DNA of 64,000 nt. It comes from Pseudomonadota bacterium (lineage in GTDB: Bacteria; Pseudomonadota; Gammaproteobacteria; Eutrophobiales; Eutrophobiaceae). The notes beneath the pieces were generated by a model, which was not told where the DNA came from, did not search any database, and saw only the letters and a list, made by a program, of their open reading frames with translations. Below, piece by piece: positions 3,790 through 52,908 of this stretch (its first letter is position 1; every line of letters begins with the position of its first letter). The stretch is from contig JACZSJ010000001.1 of assembly GCA_022574295.1 (NCBI GenBank), forward strand, positions 786-64,785, given 5' to 3'. The translations under genes and the position numbers were made by a program.

Positions 3790-3866
<77 letters not shown>

Positions 3867-32473: not shown

Positions 32474-32506
32474 GTAAGTAGCACGTAACAAACTAAGTAG
32501 TATTAA

Positions 32507-32539: not shown

Positions 32540-32890
32540 AATCAGTATGTGGTATGTGGTCCCTCTTGCTGAGGGAGTGTGGAAATCTAATGAATCACAA
32601 AATCCTGGAAAGTTCCGTAATATGGTAAAAAACTTTGCCTTGTTCACCAGGTCATAGTGGGTGTACCCGCTAAATGATATCTTTCGCATGCATTTATTTG
32701 GACTTAAGCGCTTTGAATAGAGTTTATTAATTATATATTAGGGATTGAATTTACAGAGTAAATCCATCAATATTAAACAATGTGCCCATGCCAAATGGTC
32801 CTGTGCAGTCGACAGCTAGAAAGTCTGCATATGGCGATGGTGGTACACAATCGTTTTAAATAGTACGAAGCCTCACTGGAGAAGGTTAAG

Positions 32891-33313: not shown

Positions 33314-33334
33314 GATCCAGTAACGGCCCATAAA

Positions 33335-37980: not shown

Positions 37981-39641
37981 TATTCAAATTCCTCAGGAAA
38001 ATATTTTATTGCACAACGTAATGGGTTCGGGGCTGCCTGACCCAGGCCACAAATAGAGGCATCTTCCATTGCCCGTGCCAGTTCTTCTAATAAGGACTGA
38101 TCCCAATATTTTTCTTCCATCAACTTAACTGCTTTTTCAGTTCCTACCCGACAAGGCGTGCATTGCCCACAGGACTCATCTTCGAAAAATCGCATTGCAT
38201 TTAACGCCATATTTTTAACGCTGTCTTTATCTGATAGTACGACAATCGCGGCTGAGCCAATAAAACAACCATGTTCCTGTAATGTATCAAAGTCGAGTGG
38301 AACGTCACCTAAAGAGGCAGGGAGTATCCCGCCAGATGCGCCACCAGGGAAATAGCCATAAAATTTATGACCATCCAGCATACCGTCACAGTATTCTTCA
38401 ATCAATTCACGTATTGTAATGCCTGCTGGTGCAAGATATACACCGGGTTTATTAATTCGACCACTGACAGAAAATGATCTTAATCCACTTCGTTCATGAC
38501 GGCCTTCAGATGAAAACCATTCCGGACCCTTTTCGATGATGTCCCGAACCCAATGCATTGATTCCATATTTTGTTCTAATGTCGGTCGCCCAAACAGACC
38601 GACCTGAGCAACATAAGGGGGACGTAGGCGTGGTAGCCCACGTTTGCCCTCGATGGATTCGATCATAGCGGACTCTTCGCCACATATATAAGCACCTGCA
38701 CCGCGACGCAAATGGATATTGGGTAATGGGCAGGGGGGATCTTGCTTTAATGCGGACAGTTCCTTTTCCAATGCTTTTCTGCAGCCTGCATATTCATCCC
38801 TCAAATAGATATATATATCCTCAGCTTCGATTGCCCAATGCGCTATTAATGTCCCTTCAATAAATCGATGAGGATCCCGTTCGAGGTAATATCGATCCTT
38901 GAATGTTCCCGGTTCTCCTTCATCAATGTTAATAGCAATTAGTCGAGGCTTGGATTGTTGACGTAAAATGCGCCACTTTTGCCCTGTTGGAAAGCCTGCA
39001 CCACCGAGTCCACGGAGTTTCGAATCTTCCAGTATTTTAATGATCTCTTCTCGATCGTGTTTTCCATTAACACAATCAATCAGCGTTTGATAACCACCAG
39101 ATTTTCGATAGCTGGCATAGTCAATATACTCTGGCATTGCTGCGTCAAACTCTCTCCTATTTACAGCATTGTCTATTTTCCCCTGGTTGGCATGCTCAAT
39201 TGGGTTTGTGCCAACAACGGCAACAGGGGCTGTATCACACCGACCGATACATGGCACAGCTTGAATTCTGACATCATCTTTATATTTGGCTTCTAGCTGA
39301 TTAATGAGCTCTTTAGCGCCAAACATCTCGCAAGTGAGTGATTCACATACCCGGATGGTTAGTGTTGGCGGAGGTGGCTCATTTTCGTTTAACACGTCAA
39401 AGTGATGATAAAACGTGGCCGTTTCATAGATTTCAGCCATTGGTAGGCTCATGTCTATGGCGAGTGCAAGAATATGACGATTTGAAATATGGTGATAGTG
39501 ATCCTGTATTTTATGGAGATTCTCAATCAACATATCGCGCGTGCGGGGCGCATCACCTAGAAGCTGCCGAACTTCTGCTAAAGATTTATGGGGTGTAGTA
39601 CGACCTTGAACACGACCTTTTTTCCCACGTGTACGTTTCAT
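37980..39641 (-). CDS. fdsB: NAD-dependent formate dehydrogenase beta subunit (NuoE-like plus NuoF-like fusion; FdsB/Fdh1B-like)
   Basis: 553 aa with an N-terminal thioredoxin-like 2Fe-2S domain and the NuoF flavin/NADH motifs (GLGGAGFPTGQKW, ESCGQCTPCR). Confidence 0.85.
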   Translation of the reverse strand: MKRTRGKKGRVQGRTTPHKSLAEVRQLLGDAPRTRDMLIENLHKIQDHYHHISNRHILALAIDMSLPMAEIYETATFYHHFDVLNENEPPPPTLTIRVCESLTCEMFGAKELINQLEAKYKDDVRIQAVPCIGRCDTAPVAVVGTNPIEHANQGKIDNAVNRREFDAAMPEYIDYASYRKSGGYQTLIDCVNGKHDREEIIKILEDSKLRGLGGAGFPTGQKWRILRQQSKPRLIAINIDEGEPGTFKDRYYLERDPHRFIEGTLIAHWAIEAEDIYIYLRDEYAGCRKALEKELSALKQDPPCPLPNIHLRRGAGAYICGEESAMIESIEGKRGLPRLRPPYVAQVGLFGRPTLEQNMESMHWVRDIIEKGPEWFSSEGRHERSGLRSFSVSGRINKPGVYLAPAGITIRELIEEYCDGMLDGHKFYGYFPGGASGGILPASLGDVPLDFDTLQEHGCFIGSAAIVVLSDKDSVKNMALNAMRFFEDESCGQCTPCRVGTEKAVKLMEEKYWDQSLLEELARAMEDASICGLGQAAPNPLRCAIKYFPEEFE

Positions 39642-40477
39642 GCTACTTTTTTGAGGTTGAGTGTTTGTAAGATCAGGATTTCTCCCTTTCCATTACGTGC
39701 CAAATCACCTGAAAAACGATGTGCTTCTGGTCCAAATTTATTGAAAATTGAAAATTCTTTACCCATATTCGAGAGTTGTGTAAACAGCAAGCGTAAAAAC
39801 TGTATTTTTAAATTTCCGTTGCTTTTAAATGTAGCGGTGATATGAGCGGGTTTCTTCGCCAGAATGATTGTCCCGCGTCGCATCCCAGCACCTGGGTTCT
39901 TTCCAGCTTTATCAAGGACAATAATTGTTCCTGCATGCATGCGGCTACCACAAAAATCACCTGCCTTACCATATATAATAATCATGCCGCTACGCATTCT
40001 GTCGCCGACACGATCCCCGGCAGAACCAGATATTTTGATCATGCCATCAGTCATGCCAAATGTATCACCAGGTTTGCCAGCACCGATATGATCACCAGCA
40101 TTGCCATTAATATCAATGCGACCACCAGACATATTGTTTCCGACCCATGACCCCGCGTTTCCGTTAATTGTAATAATGCCTCCTTGTAAATATGAGCCAA
40201 GAATTTTACCAACATCGCCATTCACATTGATTGATCCATAGGACATTTTTCTACCGACTGACACGAGCTTTTCACAACTACGATTGATCTGAATATTTTT
40301 AGAATCTGACCCAGTCACATTGAAGAGTGTGTCCAATACCACCTTGTTTTTACCATAAGGCAGCTTCAGGGATTTAATTTTAGTTTTGTTCAAACCAGCA
40401 AGATTATCGGGCGTTAATTGAGCAACATCCAAAGTAAACTTTGGTCGAATCTTTAATGTAAAGGTTAACGGATTCAT
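39638..40477 (-). CDS. fhcC: Formylmethanofuran dehydrogenase subunit C homolog (Fhc complex subunit C)
   Basis: Gly-rich beta-helix repeats (INGNAG..IDINGNAG), as in FwdC. 4-nt overlaps with the neighbouring genes. Confidence 0.8.
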   Translation of the reverse strand: MNPLTFTLKIRPKFTLDVAQLTPDNLAGLNKTKIKSLKLPYGKNKVVLDTLFNVTGSDSKNIQINRSCEKLVSVGRKMSYGSINVNGDVGKILGSYLQGGIITINGNAGSWVGNNMSGGRIDINGNAGDHIGAGKPGDTFGMTDGMIKISGSAGDRVGDRMRSGMIIIYGKAGDFCGSRMHAGTIIVLDKAGKNPGAGMRRGTIILAKKPAHITATFKSNGNLKIQFLRLLFTQLSNMGKEFSIFNKFGPEAHRFSGDLARNGKGEILILQTLNLKKVA

Positions 40478-41370
40478 TTCATTATCTTCCTGAGATGAAA
40501 ATGATACGGCCCCAAATCACCGCCATAATTACCAGCACTGATGCGGCATATGCCTTTTTTTGGGCCATACGAGCAGACTGCTTTAATACCAACACGCATT
40601 GCTTCGTTGATTGATTCTTCATCAAGACCATCAATAACAATTTCCAGAACAGAGCCGATCTCATCAGTCAGTTCTGAATCAACCTGTCCTTTTAATGTAG
40701 GACAATAAGCCTCATTGGTTGATGCCGGAAGAAAATCATATTTCGATCCGACTTTTGAACCTGATCCAACAATCCCCCCCGGGAAAGCAGTAATGACACC
40801 TGGAACTTTTTGAATTTCTTCAACTGCCTTTTCACAAGCCGATAAAGCATGGCGTGTGGTTTTTGCCAGCACAAGAAAGTTTCCGCCGCCTACAGCTTTG
40901 GTAGAGCCAGTAGTATCTTCACAAATGAATTCACCATGCATAACGGGGATGCGCCAAAATCTTCGGCTGTTGATTTTTTTTGATATTTGATAGCCATCAC
41001 CAAAATAACGCAGGCTTTTGCCCATGGGAATTTGATGACCATCACGAATGCCAGCGTAACAGGCTGCTGTTGCTGTAGTCATCACAGATTGGCCTACACG
41101 CATCGGGATTTGTTTTTCCAGGTCTTTCATAGACATTGCGAATATCAGTAGTGATATCCCAGGTCGACCATCAGGTGTCTCTGAAGGTGACAACTCTTTT
41201 TCAATATCTGCTTCACAACCGCAAGCGATAACCGATGAAGCAAATCCTCTGAGTGCGTTTGCTGCTCTGTATGCCCATTTTAAATTCATTGCTGTAATAA
41301 TAATGCGCGTGGCTTTCATAGGGAAAGCCTCTGCAAAAGTATCATCAATATATACGCCGTTTATTTTCAT
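40474..41370 (-). CDS. fhcD: Formylmethanofuran--tetrahydromethanopterin N-formyltransferase (Ftr; FhcD)
   Basis: 298-aa Ftr family protein (MKINGVYIDDTFAEAFPMKATRIIITA). Confidence 0.85.
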   Translation of the reverse strand: MKINGVYIDDTFAEAFPMKATRIIITAMNLKWAYRAANALRGFASSVIACGCEADIEKELSPSETPDGRPGISLLIFAMSMKDLEKQIPMRVGQSVMTTATAACYAGIRDGHQIPMGKSLRYFGDGYQISKKINSRRFWRIPVMHGEFICEDTTGSTKAVGGGNFLVLAKTTRHALSACEKAVEEIQKVPGVITAFPGGIVGSGSKVGSKYDFLPASTNEAYCPTLKGQVDSELTDEIGSVLEIVIDGLDEESINEAMRVGIKAVCSYGPKKGICRISAGNYGGDLGPYHFHLRKIMK

Positions 41371-41376
41371 TATATT

Positions 41377-43032
41377 TTATGTACAAGGTTGTACGATGAT
41401 GTTGCCATTACCATGTTCAACGATTTCATCATCATCGATCTTGAAATTACCTAGTTTAACGGTCATATAACGGTCAAAATATTTTTTTAATGATTTTTCA
41501 ATACTCTTGTCATAATCAGGTCTTAGGGTATGAGTACCACCAGTGACTACCTTGACAATTTTGCCGTTTTTGACAATTTCTTCTCCGTTCTTAAAGACAT
41601 ACAGTGGTTTTTCAAACATTTTTTCTTTATTCTTTATATTGTTATACACAGTAATATCTGCAATGGCACCACCGCCCAGGTGGCCTCTGTTTTTTAATCC
41701 TAAACTGCGAGCTGGTGCCGCACGTGTCATGGTCGCGATTTCATAAAGTGTGTATTCGCGGTCAATACTACTTAATATACTTGCAGCAGCAGCACCTTTG
41801 TTGATTGTCGCCAGCATGTCATTTCTGAAACTACGATCCATTAGCAATCGGATTAAATGGGGATAGCTTGTAAATGGTGCACCATTTGGATGATCGGTTG
41901 TCAGGAAAATTCGCCATGGGTCATTGATTAATAAAAAGAGTTCAAGGCCGATTGCCCATTGCAAGGCATTAACAAAATTCTTGTCTCGATATTTAAATGG
42001 GACAACACCACAGCCCGCATCACATTCAATATCCATGATCACCCACTTTTTCGGGTGAGCATGCCAGTGACCTGCATATTGACGCATAGTATCACCTGAT
42101 GCAGTAACGGTTTGTCCAAACAATACCTGACCTACATCGATAGAAATATTCGGATTTGAGTTTACAGCTTCAGCAATTTCCGCAGCCCCTGATGAAAACT
42201 TTCGGTCACCTTCAGTACCATAACTATGAAATTGGACATGGGTTAAATGTAATGGCATACCTTCAACTGCACGTATAGTATCTAATGTTGTGTGCATATT
42301 GCCTGGAACACCGAGATTACAACCATGTAAATGCAGAGGGTGGGGGACACCTAACTCGCGAACTGCACGTGCAAGTGATTTTATGATCTCACGAGGGGAG
42401 ACACCATAATGTTCATTCTGTTCATCCAGATCTAACTTACGTTGATTAAATTTAAAGGCATTGATGCCGCCAGGGTTTACAACTTTAATCGCTATTGCCT
42501 GTGTAGCATTGATTATCCAGCCCACGTAATCACTAATAGCTTCACGATCTTTTTTCGCAGTTAGCATACGCAGGAAAAAGTCATCACTACCCAACATGGC
42601 ATAGGCGCCTTTATCAACCATTGGTGTATCTGCCATTTCCATGTGTGCCTGACGTGCATTTGAAGGTAGCATGGCAGGTTCAAAACAGGCCGTATAACCC
42701 ATTTCCGCATATCGATATCCTGCAGTAAGTGTTGATGGTGCAGCATGGCCACACCCTGAACGTGTCAGTTTTGTTTTACTTACAAGGTCTGCCCGATGAT
42801 CTTCGGGCAACATCATACGTGCAATATTTACCTTGCCACCACCAATATGAGTGTGGATATCAATTGCACCAGCCATAATTATTTTGCCATTAAGATCATA
42901 TGTCTTATCAATCTTTATTGAAGAGGCAGGTTTTCTCGTGATGTAGCCATCCTGTAGATAAATATCTCTCTTTTCACCATTAATACCATGCACAGGATCG
43001 TAGACAGTGCCACCAGATAATTTAATTAACAT
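41377..43032 (-). CDS. fhcA: Formylmethanofuran dehydrogenase subunit A homolog (amidohydrolase; FhcA)
   Basis: 551-aa FwdA-like amidohydrolase with a metal-binding HxH motif (DIHTHIGG). Confidence 0.85.
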   Translation of the reverse strand: MLIKLSGGTVYDPVHGINGEKRDIYLQDGYITRKPASSIKIDKTYDLNGKIIMAGAIDIHTHIGGGKVNIARMMLPEDHRADLVSKTKLTRSGCGHAAPSTLTAGYRYAEMGYTACFEPAMLPSNARQAHMEMADTPMVDKGAYAMLGSDDFFLRMLTAKKDREAISDYVGWIINATQAIAIKVVNPGGINAFKFNQRKLDLDEQNEHYGVSPREIIKSLARAVRELGVPHPLHLHGCNLGVPGNMHTTLDTIRAVEGMPLHLTHVQFHSYGTEGDRKFSSGAAEIAEAVNSNPNISIDVGQVLFGQTVTASGDTMRQYAGHWHAHPKKWVIMDIECDAGCGVVPFKYRDKNFVNALQWAIGLELFLLINDPWRIFLTTDHPNGAPFTSYPHLIRLLMDRSFRNDMLATINKGAAAASILSSIDREYTLYEIATMTRAAPARSLGLKNRGHLGGGAIADITVYNNIKNKEKMFEKPLYVFKNGEEIVKNGKIVKVVTGGTHTLRPDYDKSIEKSLKKYFDRYMTVKLGNFKIDDDEIVEHGNGNIIVQPCT

Positions 43033-43046
43033 AATTCAATGATTCC

Positions 43047-44318
43047 CTAAATCAATTCAATAATGCGATTTAATATGTCGCTAACACTCATATATTTTGA
43101 ATCGCGTAATTTTTTTAGAGGGAGTGAAACAACGTTATCTGTTCGGATTAATTGGCCCGAATGATCAATGCCAGGTGTCGCAACAGGGATAAACACATCA
43201 GGTTTAAAATCCAGTTTTGCCTCAGGGGTGGCAAGTACAACGGTTGGTATCTTCGCTTTTGGCGGCCTTGTATTTGAACTAAAGCTGGAAATCCACATCA
43301 ATGCATCAACTTCTTTATTTTTCAGTAAACTTTTGGTTGAATTTCTACCGACATCGTGTCTTGGAAAACCTTTACTAAAATTTACACGTAATGGAAAGCC
43401 ACTTTGCCATGCACTTACATTATTTGCACTCATTGCTCCATCAGCACCAGCCAGGGTAAATCCGGCAAAACGCGTCGTTCTGGTCAGATATTTAACCAAT
43501 TCACAAATACTTTGAATGGTTAATTCGGCATGTGGAAAATTTAATTCGCCAGGTGCCCAGACAATAACACCGTATTTTGCTTCTTGCATTTGTTTGGCGA
43601 GTTTCAGTAATGTTGCAAGACTAATTCCTGCAATTTTTGGTGTCTGTATTATGTTGCCAGCAATGATGGCATGCAAAACCGAAATTATTTCATTGATTTC
43701 TTCCTGTTCACACTTTAATACCGTAGGTAATTTTCCTTCGGGGCTTCTTCCTGTTGAAGTTTTCAACTTATCACCTATATAAACAATCTTCCTTTTTTTT
43801 ATATTTCTGAATAATGAGTTTTTATTCCATATGACACGCTCGAAAAAGCGTGGATAATTTGATGCGTCAGTTCCCGCAAAGATAATAAAATCTGCCCGGT
43901 TTTTTATTTCTGCCATGGTCGTCATCACCCAGCCAAGGTCTTGTAATACCAGTGTGTTTCTGATCACACCATCACTATGCATATGATCGATCGTCGCACC
44001 TATATTATCGGCAAGATGCATAACAGAACGCATGCCTCCAATATCTGTGCCCAATCCAGCAATTAATGGTGCAGATGATTGTTTCAGGATTGTGGCTGCA
44101 GCCTTAATAGCCTTATCGATAGAGCAGGATTTACCTTTCAGAGCGGGGGTACTATCAGGCAGTGGTTGTGCGAAATGCGCTTTCACTTTGGCGCAGCCAT
44201 TCTCTTTCACTGTTAATTTGCTGTCCTTGTTCTGAATGACTAAATCATCACAGATAAGACTGCAAAATGGACAAGGAACTTCATTCAGCACAATTGTCTG
44301 ATGTGTTTTTGTTTTCAT
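43047..44318 (-). CDS. fhcB: Formylmethanofuran dehydrogenase subunit B homolog lacking the active-site Cys (FhcB)
   Basis: Has the N-terminal Fe-S Cys motif (CPFCSLICDD). At the position aligned to the catalytic Cys-His it has IDHMHSDG, so no Cys. This is consistent with the non-redox Fhc hydrolase complex. Confidence 0.75.
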   Translation of the reverse strand: MKTKTHQTIVLNEVPCPFCSLICDDLVIQNKDSKLTVKENGCAKVKAHFAQPLPDSTPALKGKSCSIDKAIKAAATILKQSSAPLIAGLGTDIGGMRSVMHLADNIGATIDHMHSDGVIRNTLVLQDLGWVMTTMAEIKNRADFIIFAGTDASNYPRFFERVIWNKNSLFRNIKKRKIVYIGDKLKTSTGRSPEGKLPTVLKCEQEEINEIISVLHAIIAGNIIQTPKIAGISLATLLKLAKQMQEAKYGVIVWAPGELNFPHAELTIQSICELVKYLTRTTRFAGFTLAGADGAMSANNVSAWQSGFPLRVNFSKGFPRHDVGRNSTKSLLKNKEVDALMWISSFSSNTRPPKAKIPTVVLATPEAKLDFKPDVFIPVATPGIDHSGQLIRTDNVVSLPLKKLRDSKYMSVSDILNRIIELI

Positions 44319-44330
44319 AGCGAAAGTAAT

Positions 44331-44368
44331 TACTGACTTAAAATTATTGTACTGACTTAAAATTATTA
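44331..44368. repeat. 19-bp tandem direct repeat in the fhcB leader
   Basis: TACTGACTTAAAATTATTG repeated twice, back to back, 13-51 nt upstream of the fhcB start codon. Confidence 0.7.
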
Positions 44369-44608
44369 ATGGCTAAGATACAGCCATTCCAGGTATTTTC
44401 CTGCAATCGTTCAACTAGTCTAGAAAATTAAGGTCCCGAAGGGATAGAGGTATGCGTAACTCATTGTATTTATTATGTATTTAAACAGATCTGCCACCAT
44501 CAATTTCATAGATGGCAATAATATACACTATTAGAAACAATCTGTAAGCTGGTAATTATGCCGGATATTTTTGCAATTTCTGCATTATATAAGGAATAAA
44601 TTTCTTGC

Positions 44609-46000
44609 CTAATTCAGTAGTTCCAGCATTTCTTTGACGTAGGTTATTTTTTCTCGTGGTTTACCCTTCGCTTGACCACGCTCGACTTCAGTGGCATCAA
44701 TTGATTTCCATTCCTGATAATTTATATACCTCACATTTCGTGAATCCAGTAGCGAATAAAGCGTTTCAGCCCCAGCTTTCTGGTCACCCGAATCAAGTGT
44801 ATCGAGATCGGCGAGAAGAGAATTTACCGTTGCAACACTGCAGGCACGATTTGTGCCGATGATGCCGCTGGGGCCTCGTTTGATCCAGCCGGCAGTATAG
44901 AACTGTGGCACTATTTCGTCATTCTCCGTGATGCGGCCATCGTCGTTTGGAAAAACACCCCAGCCGTCATGAAAAGGGACGCCTTGCATTGGAATACCAC
45001 GATAGCCAATGCTGCGAAACAGGATACCGGTTTCCAGTTCATAGAATTTACCTGAGCCCCGTGCAGATTGCTTAAAAGGGTCACCTGAAAGTTGATTGTG
45101 TTCGATCCTGACTCTCTCCAGTTTTGAGTCTCCTAATAATTCAACCGGACTCCTGAGAAACTGGAAATGGCATCGACGTGCCTTCCTTGATGATGCCGGG
45201 CCCGATATAGCCCGGGATGAATATTTCTGGAATAAGTCATAAATCTTTTTACTGCCGATATTCGATTTTTCTTCCAGTTCTATATGACTGGCTTTATTCA
45301 ATTCCAGTTCTGTTGAGTCAACAACCGCATCGCAATGTTCTAGTTCACCAAATTCGCGCAGTTCTTTCGGTGTAAATTTGGCTTGTGCAGGACCACGTCG
45401 GCCGATGACATAAATATCTTTAATCTTGCTTTCTGCTAGTACATCCAGCGCGTGTTCGGCGATATCGGTATGTTTCAATTCATCAACTGTCTTGGACAGG
45501 ATTCGGGCAACATCGGCGGCGACATTGCCCTGGCCGATAATCACAGCAACTTCATTGGATAAATCGAATTGTCGATCACGATAATCAGGATGACCGTTAT
45601 ACCAGGCAACAAATTCAGTTGCTGTATAACTACCAGCCAGATCTTCACCGGGGATACCCAATCTACGGTCTGATTCTGCACCACAGGTAAATATAATTGC
45701 ATGGTGGGAATCGCGCAGTTCGTCAACGCTAATGTCCTTGCCCACCGTGATATTGGCAATCAGATTAAATTCAGGTGATTGTGCTATTTTATCGTAAAGT
45801 AAGATCGCCTGTTTTAGTTTTGGATGATCAGGTGCGACGCCACTTCTCACCAGGCCATAAGGGGAAGGGAGACGTTCCAGCATATCAACCTTGATATCAA
45901 TATCAGATTTAATAAGTGCTTCTGCCGCATAAAATCCACTTGGGCCGCTGCCAACGATGGCAACACGCAAGGGATTTTGTTCACTGCCGAGTTGAGCCAT
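44609..46000 (-). CDS. fprA: FprA-type NADPH:ferredoxin (adrenodoxin-reductase-like) oxidoreductase
   Basis: 463 aa with N-terminal VAIVGSGPSGFYAA..MLERLPSPYGLVRSGVAPDHPK, matching the FprA / adrenodoxin reductase / GltD family. Confidence 0.75.
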   Translation of the reverse strand: MAQLGSEQNPLRVAIVGSGPSGFYAAEALIKSDIDIKVDMLERLPSPYGLVRSGVAPDHPKLKQAILLYDKIAQSPEFNLIANITVGKDISVDELRDSHHAIIFTCGAESDRRLGIPGEDLAGSYTATEFVAWYNGHPDYRDRQFDLSNEVAVIIGQGNVAADVARILSKTVDELKHTDIAEHALDVLAESKIKDIYVIGRRGPAQAKFTPKELREFGELEHCDAVVDSTELELNKASHIELEEKSNIGSKKIYDLFQKYSSRAISGPASSRKARRCHFQFLRSPVELLGDSKLERVRIEHNQLSGDPFKQSARGSGKFYELETGILFRSIGYRGIPMQGVPFHDGWGVFPNDDGRITENDEIVPQFYTAGWIKRGPSGIIGTNRACSVATVNSLLADLDTLDSGDQKAGAETLYSLLDSRNVRYINYQEWKSIDATEVERGQAKGKPREKITYVKEMLELLN

Positions 46001-46060
46001 TAAAAATATCTCCCACTGGGAATTATGTAATAAAATTATGCAATGATTATTAACGAATCA

Positions 46061-46369
46061 TTAGAAACCAAGTTCCGTCTTACGTTCCTCAGCGCCCGGT
46101 AATGGATCCATTTGCTCATCACAAACAGGGAGATCAGGTGCTCGTTCAGCATTAATGGCAATCCATTCTTCCTTGCCTTCAGCAACAATATCATCATCCT
46201 CAAAGATTGCTTGTACAGGGCATTCAGGGATACAGGCACTGCAATCAATGCATACATCAGGATCGATATACAACATTTCATCATCAAAATGAAAACAGGC
46301 GACAGGACAGACAGTGACACAATCTGTGAAACGACAGGATTTACAATTATCAGTTACTATAGTTGTCAT
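46061..46369 (-). CDS. fdxA: 7Fe ferredoxin ([3Fe-4S][4Fe-4S], FdxA type)
   Basis: 102 aa with CKSCRFTDCVTVCPV and CIDCSACIPECP motifs. Immediately upstream of fprA on the same strand. Confidence 0.85.
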   Translation of the reverse strand: MTTIVTDNCKSCRFTDCVTVCPVACFHFDDEMLYIDPDVCIDCSACIPECPVQAIFEDDDIVAEGKEEWIAINAERAPDLPVCDEQMDPLPGAEERKTELGF

Positions 46370-46413
46370 AATATTGACCTCCCCAAAGGTTTTAGGCCCC
46401 TTTAATAAAAGAG

Positions 46414-47226
46414 TTACTCGTTTGCGTATAAAAGAATTTCACCTTTGTTTAATTCGATGGCATCACCAATCCAGCGTTTGTAGTTGCCATTTATTTGTTC
46501 ATCAGAGACTTCCATGCCGAGTTTTCTGATATAAGATAAATACATTCGTAAGTAGGTCGGATTATAGGTACAGACATAACTAAATGTTGGAATCATTGGT
46601 GCATGATGCATTGATATTATGGTTCCTCGCTTCATGCTGGCACCATTACGGATCCCCATTTCGCCAAGTACAATAATTGTTCCGGCAAGCATATTAACAC
46701 CGGTAAAGTCACCCGTGTTTCCACCAATAGCAATCAACCCACCACGCATTGTATTGCCCGTCTCATTTTTTACGTCGCCATGAATAATTATTTCACCACC
46801 TTGCATGCCGATGGGGCTGCCTCGATAGGCGCTACCAATTAAATGTCCAGCATTACCTTTGATAGTAATCTTGCCTCCCGTCATTTCCGGGGCAACCCAG
46901 TCATGCGCATTGCCTTCAACAACGATCTCGCCACCACTCATGCAGGCGCCCAGATGTTGGCCAACATCACCTTCGATGATCATCTTGCCAATCGTCATTT
47001 CAGAACCAAGGTGTTTAACATTGGCTAAATCACCTTCGAGTTGTATTTCACCATCACATTGCCCCTTCACGGTAAAAAAATCTCCAAGTGCCGTTTGGTC
47101 ATTACCATGGAAAACAGTCAAGGCCGCGATTGCAGTTTCATTCACACCATTTAATTTATCGGGACAGATAACATCTGCCTCGAGTGGTACGTCAGGTTTT
47201 GTATGTAATGAAAGTTTTAAACTCAT
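46414..47226 (-). CDS. fwdC: Formylmethanofuran dehydrogenase subunit C (second copy)
   Basis: 270 aa with Gly-rich repeats (IVVEGNAHD..ITIKGNAG..IIIHGDV). 4-nt overlap with ftr. Confidence 0.8.
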   Translation of the reverse strand: MSLKLSLHTKPDVPLEADVICPDKLNGVNETAIAALTVFHGNDQTALGDFFTVKGQCDGEIQLEGDLANVKHLGSEMTIGKMIIEGDVGQHLGACMSGGEIVVEGNAHDWVAPEMTGGKITIKGNAGHLIGSAYRGSPIGMQGGEIIIHGDVKNETGNTMRGGLIAIGGNTGDFTGVNMLAGTIIVLGEMGIRNGASMKRGTIISMHHAPMIPTFSYVCTYNPTYLRMYLSYIRKLGMEVSDEQINGNYKRWIGDAIELNKGEILLYANE

Positions 47227-48134
47227 GACTGGTTGCTTGCTTCCCTTGCTTCCAGAATTTTATTCAAATGCAGATGGTATTGGCCTAAATTGCCCCCATA
47301 ATTACCCGCAGATAATTGCTTGATACCTGGTTTTGCAGCGGCATGTAAACCAACATGCATCGCCTCAGCAACAGCTTCTTCGCTCAAGCCATCAATCACA
47401 ATTTCCAGTACACAATTGACACCTTCTGGCACCAGTGATTCGCTGGACACGGTACGCAGAGTCGGGCAATAAGCATCATTGCTTGATGCAATGAGTGCTT
47501 TATATTTTGAACCGACCTTACTACCACTGCGTACAACGCCATTCGGGAAAGGCAGAATGACCCCGTCAATTTCTCGCATGGCTTTTGTTGCTGCCGTTGC
47601 TGCTCTCAATGTAGTTTTTTGATCTTTACCTAAAATCAGAATATTGCCACCACCGACGGCATCCTGGATACCGAAGCGTTCATCAACGACAAATTCGCCA
47701 TCCATCACCGGGATACGCCATAGCCGTTGTTTCCCCAATACCTTGCTGCTTTGATGGCCATCACCGAAGTAACGTAATTGTCCACCAACAATGGCTGTTG
47801 TGTCAGATTCAAGACCATTAAAGCAAGCCGTTGTTGGGCAGGTCATGACACATTGGCCAACACGTTCCATCAGGCGCTTTCCCAATCCATCGGCATCCAT
47901 TGCAAAAATCAGGACGCTGATGCCGGGCCTGTTATCCGGTGTCTCATCCGCTGATAATTCTTTTTCTATGCCTGCTTCGCATTTACATCCAATCACCGAG
48001 GTGGCAAAGCCAGTGATGGATTGTGCTGCTGCCATTGCCCATTGTTTTGATTCAGCCGTGATAATGATCCGACTGCCACTCATTTTGAATGCTTCAGCAA
48101 AGGTATCAACGATTTCGGTAGACTTGATTTTCAT
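47223..48134 (-). CDS. ftr: Formylmethanofuran--tetrahydromethanopterin N-formyltransferase (second copy)
   Basis: Ftr family (MKIKSTEIVDTFAEAFKMSGSRIIITA). Start trimmed to the internal Met, giving about 303 aa. Confidence 0.85.
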   Translation of the reverse strand: MKIKSTEIVDTFAEAFKMSGSRIIITAESKQWAMAAAQSITGFATSVIGCKCEAGIEKELSADETPDNRPGISVLIFAMDADGLGKRLMERVGQCVMTCPTTACFNGLESDTTAIVGGQLRYFGDGHQSSKVLGKQRLWRIPVMDGEFVVDERFGIQDAVGGGNILILGKDQKTTLRAATAATKAMREIDGVILPFPNGVVRSGSKVGSKYKALIASSNDAYCPTLRTVSSESLVPEGVNCVLEIVIDGLSEEAVAEAMHVGLHAAAKPGIKQLSAGNYGGNLGQYHLHLNKILEAREASNQS

Positions 48135-48147
48135 CAGTATTCGCCAG

Positions 48148-49788
48148 TCATCTATCATTTGCCGTTGGTACGATCTCATGATCATGTAAATAGCTATCAC
48201 TAACCGCATAGTTATCAAATTCAATGGTATAATAATTTTCGAAGAAAGGCTGAACGACTTCCTCGATCTTTTCGTCATACGCCGGTGTGATATGCAGGAT
48301 CTTTCCGTCATGGTCACCACAAAATTCATGATTAGCAATAATGGCCTTGCCAGATTTAATTACATATCGAGGGGCATTGAACATCATTTCCTTGTCATCC
48401 ATTTCATCATAGATAGTGATGTCGGCATCTGCACCTGGCCCCAGATGCCCCTTGTGCTTCAACCCTAATGCTTTGGCAGGCCCTGCGCGTGTAATGATAG
48501 TAATCTCATATAATGTGTATTCGCGATCCAGATCGTTGAGTGCTGTTTTGGCAATTGCTTTTTGATTGACGCGCGAAATTTCTTCCTGTCTAAACCCTCT
48601 GTCCATGAGCAATTTAATGAGCTTGGGATAAAGCATAAATGATCCACCATTCGGATGGTCTGTTGACAAAATGACTCGCCATGGATCTTTTGACATCAGG
48701 AACAATTCAAGCCCGATGGCCCATTGTAATGTGTGCATATAGATATGTTCCTGATAACTGAATGGAAGAATGCCGCAACCACTTTCACATTCTGTATCTA
48801 CATTTACCCATTTGCTGTTTGTTAATCCACGCAAGACATAAGCCAGTGGTGCATCCGCTGTCATAATAGTTGCCTTACCAAACATGACCTGGCCGACATC
48901 GCAGGTGATATTTGGATGTGTGTTGACATATTCAATAATTTCGGCGGCTTTTGAATCCGGATTTTTACCCAATTCTCCACCATAGCTGTGAAACTGGATG
49001 TGGGCCAGATGTGCGCGCTGATCGCCGGCAGTGCGCATGGTCTCCAATGTTGTTTTGTAGTTGCCACTGTGACCGAGATTATTACAGTGAATATGGGCCG
49101 GGTGAGGGAAGCCCATATCATTCACCGTGGTGATAAATGCTTCAATGATTTGTCTGGGTGAAAGACCGTCAAATTTCTCATCAATATTGGAGACATTTGA
49201 ATTTTTTTTGCCTTTCCAGGGTTCATCTCCGCCCGGGTTGACCAGTTTAACTGTGTAAGCCTTAGTTGAATTTACCCACCAGGCGACGGCTTGTCTGAAC
49301 TCTTCTTTTCTTCCTTCTCTTAATAAATTTTGCAGAAAAATATTATTACCAAGCAAGACGTAAAAACCTTTATCAATGATAGGAGTGTCATGAAATTCTT
49401 CAAGCGTGTGTCTTGCACCAATGGGAGTTACTGCGGCTTCCATGGCAGTGGTATAACCTAATGTCGCATAGCGATAACCGGTTGCAAATGTTGAGGGGAC
49501 AGTTCCCCCGGTGCCAGAACGAGTGAAGGGTGTGCCCGGATGGGGATCTCGACGATGATCTTCCGGTTGTAATTTACGTGCTGCGTTTACTTTAGGGCCG
49601 GCAATGTGGCAGTGGATATCGACACCACCGGGCATGACGACCATGCCCTGTGCATCGATGCGTGTTGCATCGTCGGAGACGGAATCAACAATTCGGCCAT
49701 CTTCGATACAGATGTCCTGGACTTTCCCATCAATATTGTTAATGGGATCATAAAGTTTGCCATTAACAATGCGCAGTGTTGCCGCCAT
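48148..49788 (-). CDS. fwdA: Formylmethanofuran dehydrogenase subunit A (second copy; amidohydrolase)
   Basis: 546-aa FwdA-like protein (DIHCHIAG). Confidence 0.85.
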   Translation of the reverse strand: MAATLRIVNGKLYDPINNIDGKVQDICIEDGRIVDSVSDDATRIDAQGMVVMPGGVDIHCHIAGPKVNAARKLQPEDHRRDPHPGTPFTRSGTGGTVPSTFATGYRYATLGYTTAMEAAVTPIGARHTLEEFHDTPIIDKGFYVLLGNNIFLQNLLREGRKEEFRQAVAWWVNSTKAYTVKLVNPGGDEPWKGKKNSNVSNIDEKFDGLSPRQIIEAFITTVNDMGFPHPAHIHCNNLGHSGNYKTTLETMRTAGDQRAHLAHIQFHSYGGELGKNPDSKAAEIIEYVNTHPNITCDVGQVMFGKATIMTADAPLAYVLRGLTNSKWVNVDTECESGCGILPFSYQEHIYMHTLQWAIGLELFLMSKDPWRVILSTDHPNGGSFMLYPKLIKLLMDRGFRQEEISRVNQKAIAKTALNDLDREYTLYEITIITRAGPAKALGLKHKGHLGPGADADITIYDEMDDKEMMFNAPRYVIKSGKAIIANHEFCGDHDGKILHITPAYDEKIEEVVQPFFENYYTIEFDNYAVSDSYLHDHEIVPTANDR

Positions 49789-49878
49789 TTCTCTCCCTTA
49801 TTTTATGCTTGTTCTTCTTTTATTGTTCTACAGGTTAATATTATTTTTCTTACTTTATCTTTTTCATGCAACCCTGGT

Positions 49879-51228
49879 TTATGCGACCCTGGCTTCGCCA
49901 ACGGCTATCTTGATGCCTTGTTTTGCCCAAACAAGTTCCTGAACACGTTTTTTTATTGCCGTTAAAATCTCTTCATCATCAGGATAGGGTGAGTCGAACG
50001 CTGATCGCATGGTAATGGGGACATCATCCATGCGATAAACGGTTCCACCCGTGTTAATCCCATAAGTCGATGTGGCAAAAGCAACATGAGCAAGGTTGCT
50101 AGTCTCTGTCTGTTTGGTGTCAAGCGATATTACCGGAATTTTCTTCATGTGTTCGATCGCCACTTTGGGGAAATTAGAAGCCGGGTCACTGGCAATAAAC
50201 ATGGCAGCATCGGCATCTCCTCTTGAGAGAGTGTCGACGGTGGTAAATTCGCCGGGATTGAATCTCGGATAACCCCGATTGAAATTGACCCCAAAAGGAT
50301 AACCTGTTTGCCAGGAGAGGACATTATCGGCACCAGTAACATTACCATGTCCTCTGACGGGTTTGGTGACAAAATGGGTAAATTCATTTAAATCGGTTGT
50401 CAGCGCCATTATTGCACCGGAATTAAAATGACGACCACGGGTCATGGTTAATCCCATGCCAAAAAACAGGACGCCATAACGACAATTTTTCATTTTATCG
50501 ACTAGGTCTTCCAGCGTTGCTAATGACACACCGGTCTCTTCTTCGATCGAAGGATCAATATTTTTGCCTTTCACGAGTGCACGCAAAGCCCAGAGGACTT
50601 CAAAATCTTTACCAGGCTTGACCTGAATAAATAAGTCCGCTACCGGGGCACTGGGTGTTTTTCTGATATCGACCAAGACAACGGTCCTGTCTTTGCGCCC
50701 GTTTGGTATAAACATGCCTTTCGGTGTGACTGTATAGCGTGTGAAGTGACGTGGATGGGATGCAGCGGGATTACCTCCCCAATAAATCACCAGATCGGCG
50801 CGATTTTTAACTTCACCCAATGACATGGTGCTTTCACCAACACCCTGGAATGCCAGACCGCTTGGCCCATGGCAGACTGATGTCGTTGTATCAATCGTGC
50901 CTCTGATAATATCGCTGATTGCGACAGCCTGGCGCTGGGCCTCGCAAGTAGTGTCACTCAGACCATAGATGATAGGGAATTTTGCTTTGACCAGGGTTTG
51001 TGCGGTTTCTTCAATGGCTTCCTCTTTGCTCACTTCTTTACCATCGATCATGGCAACGGGCCAATCGCCAATGGTATGTTCAGCAAACCAGGCGCGGCCT
51101 AAAACACAGGCATTTTTTGCTTTGATGATCCGTTTTTCATCCAAATCGACAGTGAGTTCCATGTCATCGCAGACACAGCCGCAAAATGTACAGGTTGCAT
51201 TTTTAACAATCTTTATATTCTCACTCAT
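49879..51228 (-). CDS. fwdB: Formylmethanofuran dehydrogenase subunit B with a conserved Cys-His active-site motif (molybdo/tungstopterin subunit)
   Basis: N-terminal Fe-S Cys cluster (CTFCGCVCDD). Contains TSVCHGPSG (Cys119-His120), which matches the V-(U/C)-H-G-P-S active-site motif of formate dehydrogenases and bona fide FwdB. Confidence 0.8.
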   Translation of the reverse strand: MSENIKIVKNATCTFCGCVCDDMELTVDLDEKRIIKAKNACVLGRAWFAEHTIGDWPVAMIDGKEVSKEEAIEETAQTLVKAKFPIIYGLSDTTCEAQRQAVAISDIIRGTIDTTTSVCHGPSGLAFQGVGESTMSLGEVKNRADLVIYWGGNPAASHPRHFTRYTVTPKGMFIPNGRKDRTVVLVDIRKTPSAPVADLFIQVKPGKDFEVLWALRALVKGKNIDPSIEEETGVSLATLEDLVDKMKNCRYGVLFFGMGLTMTRGRHFNSGAIMALTTDLNEFTHFVTKPVRGHGNVTGADNVLSWQTGYPFGVNFNRGYPRFNPGEFTTVDTLSRGDADAAMFIASDPASNFPKVAIEHMKKIPVISLDTKQTETSNLAHVAFATSTYGINTGGTVYRMDDVPITMRSAFDSPYPDDEEILTAIKKRVQELVWAKQGIKIAVGEARVA

Positions 51229-51257
51229 TACTATTCTGGCCTCATGTATCAGAATTT

Positions 51258-51614
51258 TCAGATATTTTTCACTGTTACTTTTTCTACCAGTACTTCAATA
51301 TTTTTAGATATAGGCATGCCGGTTCCAGCCGTATCACCGTCCATCAATTGAGAAGAGGGTGGCCCATATGCGATGAATAGTATGCCTGACGGCAAGTCTT
51401 CGGGTTTACGACCTTTGCAAGTAACGACCGTTTCTCCAACTTCATTGCTTAGACGAACTGAATCACCTTCCTCCAGGCCGAGACGTTGCATATCGTCACT
51501 GTTCATCTCCAGGGTACTTGTGACTAACAGGTATTCCGGCTTTAGTTTGCCCTTGTTTAGAGCCGTGCCCTGTTTACTGGAACGCCCGGGCACTAATATC
51601 ATGGTTTCCGCCAT
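51258..51614 (-). CDS. fwdD: Formylmethanofuran dehydrogenase subunit D (molybdopterin dinucleotide-binding domain)
   Basis: About 118-aa FwdD-like beta-barrel protein with GAGGA as RBS before the chosen ATG. No FwdD counterpart exists in the fhc set. Confidence 0.7.
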   Translation of the reverse strand: MAETMILVPGRSSKQGTALNKGKLKPEYLLVTSTLEMNSDDMQRLGLEEGDSVRLSNEVGETVVTCKGRKPEDLPSGILFIAYGPPSSQLMDGDTAGTGMPISKNIEVLVEKVTVKNI

Positions 51615-51888
51615 GTTGTCCTCACGCTTTAATTTTTTGGGTGTTCGACGGGTTAGCAAACCAGACTGACCTTTCAGGCATCTGAATCTGGTTTTATATA
51701 TTGTGGGTACTCAACCGTATGTTGACATTATAGTCTGGAATTTTTGTCGAGAACAGCAAAAACGCGCATCACGATTAGAATACTATGAAAAAATGTTCTC
51801 GCCAGTACCTCAAAAGTCTAACTTACAGTATGATAACAGGCCAATTTTCATAAAATAATACAAAATATTCAAACCCATTTGTAAGTCA

Positions 51889-52908
51889 ATGAAAAATCAA
51901 CAATTATCAGTAGCAGGCAATGAATCAATCAGTATCATTGCACCTGCGCGTCTGCATCTGGGATTTATGGATATGCATGGTGGTTTAGGCAGGCAGTTTG
52001 GTAGCCTGGGCTTGTCTTTATCTGACATCTTCACACATATAACAGCAAAAAAATCAGATGCTATTGTGATACATGGCCCGTCGAGTAACCGTGGTACCGA
52101 GTACGTGTCCAGAATTATCAACGCACTCAAGATCAAGGGTGGCGTGGAAATTACAATTCATGATGCGATACCTGAACATGCCGGTCTGGGCTCAGGGACG
52201 CAACTTTCGCTGGCCATTGGTATCGCTATTGCAAGACTTTACGGCTTTCAAATATCTACTAGAGAAGTAGCTATATTGATGAAGCGGGGTGCACGCTCAG
52301 GTATTGGTGTGGGCGCATTCACCATGGGTGGGTTTTTAGTCGATGGAGGTAGAGGTGAATCAACAGAGGTGCCTCCGATTGTTAGTCAATGTTATTTCCC
52401 TGAAGAATGGCGAATATTACTGGTATTCGATAAAGATGTAGAGGGAATCAACGGTAACCCTGAAAAAGAAATCTTTGAGCAATTACCTCCAATGAATGAG
52501 GATGACAGCGCACGAATCTGTAGAGTAGTGCTCATGCAACTTTTACCCGCGCTGGCAGAGAAAAATTGCGATAAGTTTGGCGCTGCGATCACCGAAATAC
52601 AAACTATGATGGGTGAACATTTCTCAGATGCACAAAATGGTCATTATAGCAGCCAGCAAGTTGCAGAAATTATGCGTTGGACGTTGTTGCACGGTGCGGC
52701 AGGCGTCGGTCAAAGTTCATGGGGCCCGACTGGTTTTGCCGTCTATGCAAATGAACTAAAGGCCTACCAAACGCTGCAATTATTGCGTAAAAATTGGCAG
52801 AATGAAAAGAATCTGGACTTTTGCCTATGTACAGCACGCAACACAAAGGCTGACATAATTATTGATGGTCAGTTGCCTCAAGACATTAATTTACAAAGTC
52901 ATCAATAA
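51889..52908 (+). CDS. mptG: Beta-ribofuranosylaminobenzene 5'-phosphate synthase (GHMP-kinase fold; H4MPT biosynthesis)
   Basis: 339-aa GHMP-kinase-like protein (IIAPARLHLGF, GLGSGTQLSLA). Context within the H4MPT gene cluster. Confidence 0.65.
   Translation: MKNQQLSVAGNESISIIAPARLHLGFMDMHGGLGRQFGSLGLSLSDIFTHITAKKSDAIVIHGPSSNRGTEYVSRIINALKIKGGVEITIHDAIPEHAGLGSGTQLSLAIGIAIARLYGFQISTREVAILMKRGARSGIGVGAFTMGGFLVDGGRGESTEVPPIVSQCYFPEEWRILLVFDKDVEGINGNPEKEIFEQLPPMNEDDSARICRVVLMQLLPALAEKNCDKFGAAITEIQTMMGEHFSDAQNGHYSSQQVAEIMRWTLLHGAAGVGQSSWGPTGFAVYANELKAYQTLQLLRKNWQNEKNLDFCLCTARNTKADIIIDGQLPQDINLQSHQ

Follow-up and report, generated by a model that had tools for sequence, protein, structure and literature searches.

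A seven-gene block on the minus strand of the 64-kb window (the whole stretch of DNA that was analysed) probably, on balance, encodes a redox-active bacterial formyl-methanofuran (methylofuran) dehydrogenase, whose electrons would pass through the ferredoxin FdxA and the flavoprotein FprA to NADP+ and which would thereby bypass free formate. Direct oxidation of the formyl group to CO2 appears probable because all catalytic residues were found to be kept and because the block is conserved together with a 7Fe ferredoxin and a NADPH:ferredoxin reductase. The initial annotation had read the same genes as a ferredoxin/NADPH-linked formyl-MFR to CO2 oxidoreductase, and the comparisons described below support that reading at the level of sequence. 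If true, it would place formyl-methanofuran dehydrogenase activity, so far shown only in archaea, in a bacterium; no description of a fwd module joined to fdxA-fprA was found in the literature searched, and one 2016 article gave fwdD as absent from Proteobacteria.

The genes run in the order fwdD-fwdB-fwdA-ftr-fwdC-fdxA-fprA from 51614 to 44609, and all seven were recovered on the minus strand where the initial annotation had put them. They are followed on the same strand by fhcB-fhcA-fhcD-fhcC (39638..44318), a conventional formyltransferase/hydrolase set that forms the context and lies outside the redox module, and then by a NAD-type formate dehydrogenase (35185..39641), recognised from its Pfam architecture as a NuoE/NuoF-fusion (fdsBG-like) gene plus an fdsA-like Mo-formate dehydrogenase alpha subunit (TIGR01591, 768 bits). 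The order fwdB-A-ftr-C mirrors fhcB-A-D-C, and ftr and fwdC overlap by 4 nt. Calling the block a full archaeal-type Fwd set proved right only in part: it has genes for FwdA, B, C and D, but polyferredoxin genes (FwdE, F, G or H) were not found anywhere in the 64-kb window. A scan for promoters and terminators gave a result no better than shuffled sequence. An assembly artefact as the source of the gene block was rejected, the same order being found on six independent metagenome contigs with 100%-identical FwdB.

The catalytic subunit FwdB (49879..51228, minus strand; 449 aa; TIGR03129, 513 bits) matched five solved archaeal FwdB chains with E = 3e-119 to 2e-101, and its alignment with the archaeal structures was colinear at 43-45% identity, with internal indels of 4 aa or less. 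Residues C13, C16, C20 and C41 align with the [4Fe-4S] cysteines of M. wolfeii FwdB, and C119, H120 and R292 with its Cys118/His119/Arg288, which have been named as catalytic (PMC6926001). The TSVCHGPSG motif, expected at about 50860-50880, was located there, with TGC at 50874-50872 coding for Cys119 and CAT at 50871-50869 for His120. The third member of the triad, Arg292, was absent from the initial annotation. The predicted retention of Cys-His was borne out by alignment, in which C13, C16, C20, C41, C119, H120 and R292 were all invariant in 81/81 FwdB sequences, that is, the window plus the best 80 of 472 matching GTDB species genomes (mostly gammaproteobacterial, all labelled MAGs). As far as colinearity and conservation indicate, the pterin-contact residues are likewise probably retained.

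These residues are not kept by default: of ~120 full-length sequences that represent the FwdB/FhcB superfamily, only ~17 carried the full signature, and in FhcB the Cys, the His and the Arg are lost. In the neighbouring FhcB (44318-43047), which is 30% identical to FwdB, IDHMHSDGV stands at the aligned place; the missing Cys had been pointed out initially, and the active-site His and Arg proved to be gone too, as in 43/43 sequences of the co-resident FhcB family. Of 173 archaeal-invariant columns, FwdB keeps 111 vs 63 for FhcB. Across the 34 genomes with all eleven genes, identity to the window protein was 77-92% for FwdB (median 81%), while FhcB fell to as low as 36% (median 58%), and few proteins of the island are as well conserved as FwdB.

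FwdD (51258..51614, minus strand) starts at Met16 of a 133-aa ORF, giving 118 aa, the length also given by gene callers on six contigs, and carries a Molydop_binding domain. It scored 73 bits with NCBIfam FwdD, under the 175-bit cutoff, and its structural matches were to archaeal FwdD only (2ki8, 8rja_D, 5t5i_D, 9sfi_S and 7bkb_J; E = 6e-18 to 4e-10); by homology it is a true counterpart of archaeal FwdD, as first annotated, and the predicted cap ('domain IV', here a separate protein) over the Mo/W-bis-pterin site. The gene is kept in 78/80 loci (best 80 of 472 species). FwdA (48148..49788, minus strand; TIGR03121, 702 bits) matched the archaeal 8rja_A (E = 7.5e-147) and 5t5i_A (E = 1.5e-140) more strongly than M. 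extorquens FhcA (E = 6e-104), and has its metal-ligand motifs intact (DIH59CH61, K181, H232xH234, H263/H267, D377); it is, by the same kind of evidence, the amidohydrolase subunit predicted to hydrolyse or form formyl-methanofuran. Ftr (47223..48134, minus strand; 303 aa from MKIKST; Pfam FTR and FTR_C; NF002554, 438 bits), a second copy that is 54% identical to the FhcD of the window, is a predicted formylmethanofuran:H4MPT formyltransferase. For the beta-helix (GXGXG) subunit FwdC (46414..47226, minus strand; TIGR03122, 261 bits), archaeal alignments end at its residues 206-224, M. extorquens FhcC aligns over 7-268, and the C-terminal 61 residues matched the FhcC family by hhalign (92% probability, E = 5.6e-7). 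Judged by these alignments, FwdC joins a beta-helix resembling the archaeal one to a C-terminus of the Fhc type, and the predicted complex has an Fhc-like build with a retained archaeal dehydrogenase module.

FdxA (46061..46369, minus strand) has cysteines at 9, 12, 17, 21, 25, 40, 43, 46 and 50, the FdI-type pattern of a 7Fe ([3Fe-4S][4Fe-4S]) ferredoxin as had been annotated, and it matched A. vinelandii ferredoxin I structures with E = 3e-27. Because it scored 107 bits with NCBIfam FdxA_Protbact, under the 135-bit cutoff for housekeeping FdxA, it is a divergent paralogue. A point against its taking electrons from FwdB is that, of the two clusters in 7Fe ferredoxins of the A. vinelandii type, the [3Fe-4S] cluster alone has a usable potential. 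The FprA assignment (44609..46000, minus strand) was likewise confirmed: in full-length alignments, M. tuberculosis FprA (1lqt) matched with E = 3e-106 and bovine adrenodoxin reductase with E = 3e-97. With GSGPSG at 17 and GRRGP at 200, the protein is by homology an adrenodoxin-reductase-type flavoenzyme that contains FAD and acts as a NADPH:ferredoxin reductase.

The functional link between this pair and the fwd genes had been drawn from adjacency, and it gained from synteny: fdxA-fprA adjoins the fwd genes in ~51/53 informative loci at species level (best 80 of 472 species), 48 of them scored automatically as lying after fwdC and two (L064, L071) by inspection, and in the rearranged locus L032 the two genes have moved jointly across the fwd genes and lie directly upstream of fwdD. 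In L035 and L067 the pair lies 3' of fwdC without fhc genes following. The fwdC-fdxA gap (44 nt in the window; median 52 nt over 57 loci) and the fdxA-fprA gap (60 nt; median 42 nt over 56 loci) resemble the gaps inside the fwd genes, and the fprA-fhcB gap is larger (290 nt; median 150 nt). The incomplete pair in L018, which has neither gene, and in L023, which has fdxA only, counts against the best reading, as do two more distant bacterial FwdB genes that carry Cys-His-Arg with no fdxA-fprA nearby.

In the proposed mechanism, Ftr would sit on the Fhc-type C-terminal part of FwdC and transfer formyl from formyl-H4MPT to the furan cofactor, after which the binuclear metal site of FwdA would hydrolyse the formyl-furan. 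The formate would then be channelled inside the complex to the bis-pterin site of FwdB/FwdD (Cys119, His120, Arg292), which presumably binds Mo or W, and be oxidised there to CO2. The [4Fe-4S] cluster of FwdB would hand the electrons on to FdxA, a dedicated 7Fe ferredoxin and a substitute for archaeal FwdG/FwdF, and the FAD of FprA would deliver them to NADP+. Since the block lacks FwdF/FwdG, the polyferredoxins that serve as wiring in the archaeal enzymes, docking of a soluble 7Fe ferredoxin on FwdB is an assumption here. The genes would presumably be co-transcribed and their products form one complex, with the net reaction formyl-H4MPT + NADP+ -> CO2 + NADPH and no free formate, parallel to the neighbouring route of Fhc and NAD-formate dehydrogenase. 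The potential of NADP+ is about -320 mV. Against the E0' of -530 mV cited for formyl-MFR/CO2 in PMC11493965, oxidation comes out at about -40 kJ/mol by calculation, downhill by ~0.2 V.

The fwd and fhc genes sit in an H4MPT/methylofuran biosynthesis island with oxidative surroundings (PQQ methanol/ethanol-family dehydrogenase, fae, mtdB, mch, NAD-type formate dehydrogenase), and the host is apparently an aerobic, methylotroph-like gammaproteobacterium.

It is possible, though rather unlikely, that Fwd does carry out redox chemistry but most of its electrons end up elsewhere than on NADP+, with reduced FdxA feeding other ferredoxin-dependent reactions and FprA balancing the pools or running from NADPH to ferredoxin. 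The latter is the usual direction of FprA-type enzymes, for example in P450 systems, L023 keeps fdxA without fprA, and FdxA is better conserved than FprA (median identity 81% vs 67%); against this, fprA accompanies fdxA in nearly every informative locus and moved with it in L032, the block encodes no ferredoxin-consuming enzyme, and electron flow to NADP+ is downhill. We regard it as unlikely that FwdB/FwdD is mainly a ferredoxin-linked formate dehydrogenase for free formate, e.g. from the neighbouring Fhc, with no oxidation of formyl-methanofuran through an internal channel. In structure FwdB/FwdD amounts to a formate dehydrogenase split in two, E. coli FdhH is matched in part (E = 3e-11), and the fhc genes lie directly downstream; but the block has its own FwdA with intact metal ligands, Ftr and FwdC in a tight, often overlapping layout in nearly all loci, which counts against such an enzyme because a plain formate dehydrogenase would need none of the three. 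Moreover, a separate NAD-type enzyme, by homology a parallel route from formate to CO2, is already joined to the fhc operon, its genes 3' of fhcC showing start/stop codon overlaps of -4 and -1 nt.

A redox-dead second formyltransferase/hydrolase, with Cys-His as an evolutionary leftover and fdxA-fprA as unrelated housekeeping neighbours, is very improbable: the active site is lost in most members of the FwdB/FhcB superfamily and among bacteria only the non-redox Fhc has been characterised as a complex of this kind (PMC6926001), but the seven invariant residues, the conservation of FwdB relative to FhcB, the retention of fwdD, the synteny that survives rearrangement and the sub-cutoff score of FdxA all speak against it. 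Equally improbable is the reductive, archaeal direction, in which CO2 would be fixed onto the furan cofactor with reduced ferredoxin to feed a reductive H4MPT route; archaeal Fwd runs reductively and the module is homologous, and a similar fwdDBA-ftr-fwdC operon of Hakuba Actinobacteria has been discussed in a Wood-Ljungdahl context (PMC7325909), but the sole encoded supplier of reductant is the NADPH:ferredoxin reductase, NADPH at ~ -320 mV cannot drive the -530 mV couple, the island is oxidative, and no hydrogenase, bifurcating Hdr, mer or CODH/ACS gene was found in the 64-kb window.

Taken as an NADP+-linked formyl-methanofuran dehydrogenase, the block resembles archaeal FwdABCDFG (M. wolfeii PDB 5T5I; also 8RJA, 9SFI, 7BKB, 9SW6) in its homologous FwdA, B, C and D, with the FwdB [4Fe-4S] cysteines, the Cys-His-Arg site, the separate FwdD cap and the FwdA metal ligands. 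It differs in lacking FwdE, F, G and H, in having ftr between fwdA and fwdC, in the Fhc-type FwdC C-terminus, in its electron partners, a 7Fe ferredoxin and the FprA flavoprotein, and in its apparently aerobic gammaproteobacterial host and presumed oxidative direction. With bacterial FhcABCD (M. extorquens PDB 6S6Y) it shares the order B-A-(Ftr/D)-C, a formyltransferase within the operon, a C-subunit segment that aligns with FhcC to the end, and the H4MPT/methylofuran biosynthesis island. Fhc is without FwdD, the active-site Cys/His/Arg and, in M. extorquens, the FeS domain, and releases formate (PMC6926001), whereas the block keeps all of these features and is linked to redox partners. The Hakuba serpentinite actinobacterial operon has the identical five-gene order fwdDBA-ftr-fwdC, a FwdB with an N-terminal [4Fe-4S] domain and Cys118, and no fwdE, F or G, but belongs to another phylum and a Wood-Ljungdahl/CO context, with H4MPT biosynthesis genes not found there and no fdxA-fprA module reported (PMC7325909).

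The F420-reducing Fwd of Ca. Ethanoperedens thermophilum (FwdI module; PMC11493965) is, as proposed for the block, an oxidative Fwd wired to a mid-potential two-electron carrier, at ~ -340 mV vs ~ -320 mV for the block, which makes CO2 release strongly exergonic in the one and would do so in the other. That enzyme is archaeal and anaerobic, with its F420-reductase subunit connected through a polyferredoxin, not through a soluble 7Fe ferredoxin and an adrenodoxin-reductase-type NADP(H) flavoprotein, and its coupling was shown biochemically where that of the block is predicted. The M. tuberculosis FprA/7Fe ferredoxin and mitochondrial adrenodoxin reductase systems offer a full-length homologous flavoprotein with the GRRGP NADP(H) motif. 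A mycobacterial precedent for pairing FprA with a 7Fe ferredoxin was reportedly provided by Fischer et al. in 2002. In those systems NADPH is the donor, and ferredoxin or adrenodoxin receives the electrons for use by P450s; in the block the proposed flow would be reversed, and the partner would be a C1 dehydrogenase.

The minus strand from 51659 to 35185 was found to carry an unbroken series of C1-oxidation genes. It includes the seven genes of the Fwd set, namely fwdD (51614-51258; 118 aa from Met16, the same start being picked by gene callers on six other contigs), fwdB (51228-49879), fwdA (49788-48148), ftr (48134-47223), fwdC (47226-46414), fdxA (46369-46061) and fprA (46000-44609), all on the minus strand, with ftr placed between fwdA and fwdC and overlapping the latter by 4 nt; the initial annotation had listed these genes in this order for 44609-51614, and both list and coordinates were correct. 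After a 290-nt gap come fhcB, fhcA, fhcD and fhcC (44318-39638, minus strand), the conventional non-redox formyltransferase/hydrolase set, and then genes for a NuoE/NuoF-fusion protein and an FdsA-type molybdo-formate-dehydrogenase alpha subunit (39641-35185, minus strand) with overlapping start and stop codons. Divergently from 51889 lie the H4MPT/methylofuran genes for beta-RFAP synthase, mtdB, mch, fae, an mptN-like gene, pabB and an mfnE-like gene. Upstream, a PQQ methanol/ethanol-family dehydrogenase (633 aa), a pseudoazurin-like protein and a MoxJ-like periplasmic binding protein are encoded in this order at 30572-34237 on the plus strand; the pseudoazurin-like protein scored 88 bits, under the 110-bit cutoff, and occupies the expected position of the cytochrome c gene. 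The identical gene arrangement was present on six independently assembled contigs. Recent horizontal transfer of the Fwd block was ruled out because its GC content, 0.43-0.45 throughout, is equal to that of the flanks.

No riboswitch, for Moco or otherwise, was detected in an Rfam scan of the whole window or in a permissive scan of 44200-52000, and these scans gave only a tRNA at 3790-3863 plus two sub-threshold chance matches. Consensus scans returned 17 promoter-like sites against 17.4 in shuffles, i.e., no excess, and 14 terminator-like sites against 7.1, with none clearly located between fwdC, fdxA and fprA; operon boundaries were drawn from gap sizes and not from the promoter/terminator scan. 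Adjoining the tRNA gene is a conserved AMMECR1-Memo-radical-SAM trio (1124-3739, the first two genes on the minus strand and the third divergent), which bears no relation to the Fwd finding. At 28865-29752 on the minus strand, SoxY and SoxZ domains are fused in a single 295-aa ORF, which suggests that the organism may also oxidise sulfur compounds.

One genome per GTDB species was scanned for FwdB, and a relative was found in 472 genomes, of which the best 80 (77-92% identity) were analysed. All 80 are labelled as MAGs and most as Gammaproteobacteria; the carriers include 'Chromatiales bacterium USCg_Taylor', Thiotrichaceae UBA973 and UBA7357 and a Ca. Oxydemutatoraceae chromosome, and isolate names point to origins in marine sediment and groundwater and possibly in association with a host. 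Among these MAGs, the loci L001, L002, L003, L007 and L080, with FwdB 78-92% identical, are labelled Enterobacteriaceae, Gemmatimonadota, Planctomycetota or Anaerolineae; judged by gene content and identity, these are more likely placeholder names or the result of misbinning than a sign of true taxonomic spread. In the 34 genomes with both sets, the median identity to the window protein was 81% for FwdB (minimum 77%) and 58% for FhcB (minimum 36%).

FwdB matched five solved archaeal FwdB chains with E = 3e-119 to 2e-101, against a best E of 8e-41 for the neighbouring FhcB. When three archaeal FwdB sequences were rebuilt from structure alignments and realigned with both proteins, the identity to them was 43-45% for FwdB and 26-29% for FhcB. 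FwdB is colinear with its archaeal counterparts, internal indels being limited to 2, 4 and 2 residues, and 111 of 173 archaeal-invariant columns are kept in the sequence alignment, which bears indirectly on the predicted binding of a Mo/W-bis-pyranopterin guanine dinucleotide. By alignment, C13, C16, C20 and C41 are the N-terminal [4Fe-4S] cysteines, C119-H120 falls on Cys118-His119 of M. wolfeii FwdB and R292 on its Arg288, and every one of these residues was invariant in 81 of 81 sequences, so that the active-site Cys119-His120 reported initially was confirmed. The same pair also aligned to the X-His of 9SFI, where X is presumably selenocysteine; selenocysteine at the FwdB active site was ruled out because the Cys119 codon is TGC (50874-50872). 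Cys118, His119 and Arg288 are the very residues given as lost in FhcB (Hemmann et al., PMC6926001). FwdD, likewise claimed for this block, was recovered directly upstream of fwdB as a Molydop_binding protein of 118 aa whose structure matches were archaeal FwdD only, and the gene was present in 78 of the 80 loci. In FwdA, residues H59, H61, K181, H232/H234, H263/H267 and D377 aligned to the binuclear-metal motifs of M. wolfeii FwdA.

The neighbouring FhcB, on the other hand, shows IDHMHSDGV at the Cys-His site and G-A-D at the Arg site, with no Cys, His or Arg; the Cys-free IDHMHSDG mentioned in the initial annotation was indeed seen at the aligned position. The Fhc-type hallmark, i.e., a B subunit without Mo/W ligand, His and Arg and no FwdD, is accordingly present at 39638-44318 and absent at 46414-51614. 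FwdB matched 679 clusters at E < 1e-30 in a search of 1.84 billion library representatives, and the full Cys4/Cys-His/Arg signature was carried by about 17 of about 120 full-length top representatives. Site loss is therefore the usual fate in the FwdB/FhcB superfamily, and strict retention of the site in the FwdB clade argues for function. A tblastn search of FwdB against 72,556 plasmids gave only FhcB- or FdhF-type matches below 30% identity. Among the nearest outgroup clusters, one member is named Pirellulales. Two distant relatives (L091, 4492-5811; L092, 4046-5398) are stand-alone FwdB homologues with the full signature in planctomycete-like contexts, with no fwdA, C, D or ftr nearby and one of them adjoining a MoaA-like radical-SAM gene; they may be orphan formate-dehydrogenase-like enzymes.

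In FhcB itself (43047-44318, minus strand), the N-terminal [4Fe-4S] motif CPFCSLICDD...C has all four of its cysteines in 42 of 43 orthologues among loci L001-L080, despite the loss of the catalytic Cys, His and Arg, and most representatives of the FwdB/FhcB superfamily likewise retain the four. To our knowledge, the FhcB of M. extorquens is the only one studied. That protein is without an N-terminal [4Fe-4S] domain (PMC6926001). Further downstream, the genes for FhcC, the NuoE/NuoF fusion and the FdsA-type alpha subunit (35185-40477, minus strand) are joined by stop/start overlaps of -4 and -1 nt, and thus the formate-releasing Fhc and the NAD-type formate dehydrogenase look like one operon. 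The codon overlaps and the retained FeS motif of FhcB together make it conceivable that Fhc and FDH associate physically.

Neither the window nor the DNA flanking the 80 loci was found to contain a gene for the polyferredoxin subunits FwdF/FwdG, whose place is occupied by fdxA-fprA. FdxA carries cysteines at 9, 12, 17, 21, 25, 40, 43, 46 and 50 in the pattern of A. vinelandii FdI (E = 3e-27), fitting CxxCxxxxCxxxCP ... CxxCxxCxxxCP for one [3Fe-4S] and one [4Fe-4S] cluster, and FprA is a full-length homologue of M. tuberculosis FprA 1lqt (E = 3e-106, residues 9-460) that also matched adrenodoxin reductase 1cjc (E = 3e-97); both gene products were therefore identified rightly at the outset as a 7Fe ferredoxin and an FprA-type reductase. 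Against the NCBIfam model of the housekeeping proteobacterial protein, FdxA_Protbact, FdxA scored 107 bits, under the cutoff of 135, and is thus a divergent family member. The FAD fingerprint GxGxxG is found in FprA as GSGPSG at 17, and the NADP(H) motif GRRGP at 200, the two Arg of which bind the 2'-phosphate of NADP(H).

The order fwdC-fdxA-fprA was scored automatically in 48 of the 53 loci with enough downstream DNA, and by inspection in L064 and L071 too. In one locus (L032), both genes have moved as a pair, with their orientation kept, to a position immediately upstream of fwdD; another (L023) had fdxA without fprA, and a third (L018) had neither. Two loci (L035 and L067) have the pair after fwdC and yet no fhc genes downstream, indicating that fdxA-fprA is tied to fwd rather than to fhc. 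The median gaps of 52 nt (fwdC-fdxA) and 42 nt (fdxA-fprA) are comparable to that of fwdB-fwdA (69 nt), and the fprA-fhcB gap is larger (median 150 nt; 290 nt in the window). In the archaeal loci with a FwdD-FwdB fusion (L089/L090), the gene of a FwdG-like 2x[4Fe-4S] protein comes next. A distant bacterial cluster (L087, 5699-17311) has a FwdB 49% identical with Cys-His-Arg kept, in the order mtdB, ATP-grasp, fwdD, fwdB, fwdA, flavoprotein, pterin-binding protein, DUF447, GHMP kinase, ftr, fwdC, mch; fdxA-fprA is missing there, so its electron partner differs or is encoded elsewhere. Since distant relatives show other solutions, the ferredoxin/FprA output seems to have arisen within this gammaproteobacterial clade.

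The gene order fwdB-A-ftr-C parallels fhcB-A-D-C. The FwdC beta-helix scored best against archaeal FwdC with alignments stopping at residues 206-224, M. extorquens FhcC aligned through residue 268, and when the 61 C-terminal residues of FwdC were compared with the FhcC family by profile-profile alignment (hhalign), the probability was 92% and E = 5.6e-7. Both Fhc features, a formyltransferase in the operon and an Fhc-type C-terminal segment of the C subunit, were thus found in the Fwd set. This region forms a helix-loop-helix in Fhc, as opposed to the archaeal beta-hairpin, with FhcC serving as the binding subunit for the formyltransferase (PMC6926001); from this and the FwdC C-terminus, we infer that the Fwd set would form a formyltransferase/dehydrogenase complex of Fhc-like organisation with Ftr docked on FwdC, but, unlike in Fhc, with the dehydrogenase module still present. 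A three-step trajectory from Fwd to Fhc was proposed by Hemmann et al. (PMC6926001), and the Fwd set would represent the kind of intermediate it implies.

The reading of this block as a ferredoxin/NADPH-linked formyl-MFR to CO2 oxidoreductase is supported, on sequence grounds, as a well-founded hypothesis. The gene block was verified in 80 species-level genomes, the best of 472 matching. It seems quite possible, if somewhat short of probable, that an uncultured gammaproteobacterial clade runs an unrecognised NADP+-reducing formyltransferase/formyl-methylofuran dehydrogenase, a living intermediate between archaeal Fwd and bacterial Fhc that would combine Fhc-like architecture with a still active dehydrogenase and in which a 7Fe ferredoxin and FprA replace the polyferredoxins. 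In textbook bacterial methylotrophy, the H4MPT pathway ends at Fhc, which releases free formate, and we know of formylmethanofuran dehydrogenase activity demonstrated in archaea only. If the proposal is true, aerobic C1 oxidisers would gain a second terminal oxidation route from formyl-H4MPT to CO2, formate-free and NADPH-yielding, in which carbon is committed to CO2 and the formate branch point is avoided. The proposal would also contradict the published view that Proteobacteria have no fwdD (PMC5020050) and supply the intermediate form postulated by Hemmann et al. For CO2-capture biocatalysis, interest would lie in a Cys-type CO2/formyl-furan enzyme whose partners are simple and soluble and which may tolerate oxygen. 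As an upland-soil-cluster-gamma MAG belongs to the clade, the finding is also relevant to how atmospheric-methane oxidisers balance energy and reductant. In Actinobacteria, an operon with the identical order fwdDBA-ftr-fwdC and with Cys118 was reported (Merino et al., 2020; PMC7325909), and 149 bacterial FwdB homologues were listed in 2023 without functional analysis; neither a description nor a proposal of a Fwd-FdxA-FprA module or an NADP-linked bacterial enzyme was found in the full-text literature searched.

In the proposed mechanism, Ftr would transfer the formyl group from formyl-H4MPT to the furan cofactor, FwdA would split formyl-furan by hydrolysis to formate, and the Mo/W site of FwdB/FwdD would oxidise the formate to CO2. 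The electrons would pass to the [4Fe-4S] cluster of FwdB, from there to FdxA, assuming docking of the soluble 7Fe ferredoxin, and finally through the FAD of FprA to NADP+. The potential of NADP+ is about -320 mV. For formyl-MFR/CO2, an E0' of -530 mV has been given (Bertram and Thauer, as cited in PMC11493965), and the transfer would thus be downhill by ~40 kJ/mol and the reverse reaction on NADPH impossible. The logic of this scheme is parallel to that of the F420-reducing Fwd of Ca. Ethanoperedens. The Fhc plus NAD-FDH encoded next door would carry out the same overall chemistry; the proposed Fwd route would differ from it in having no free formate as a branch point, in yielding NADPH instead of NADH, and possibly in its kinetics.
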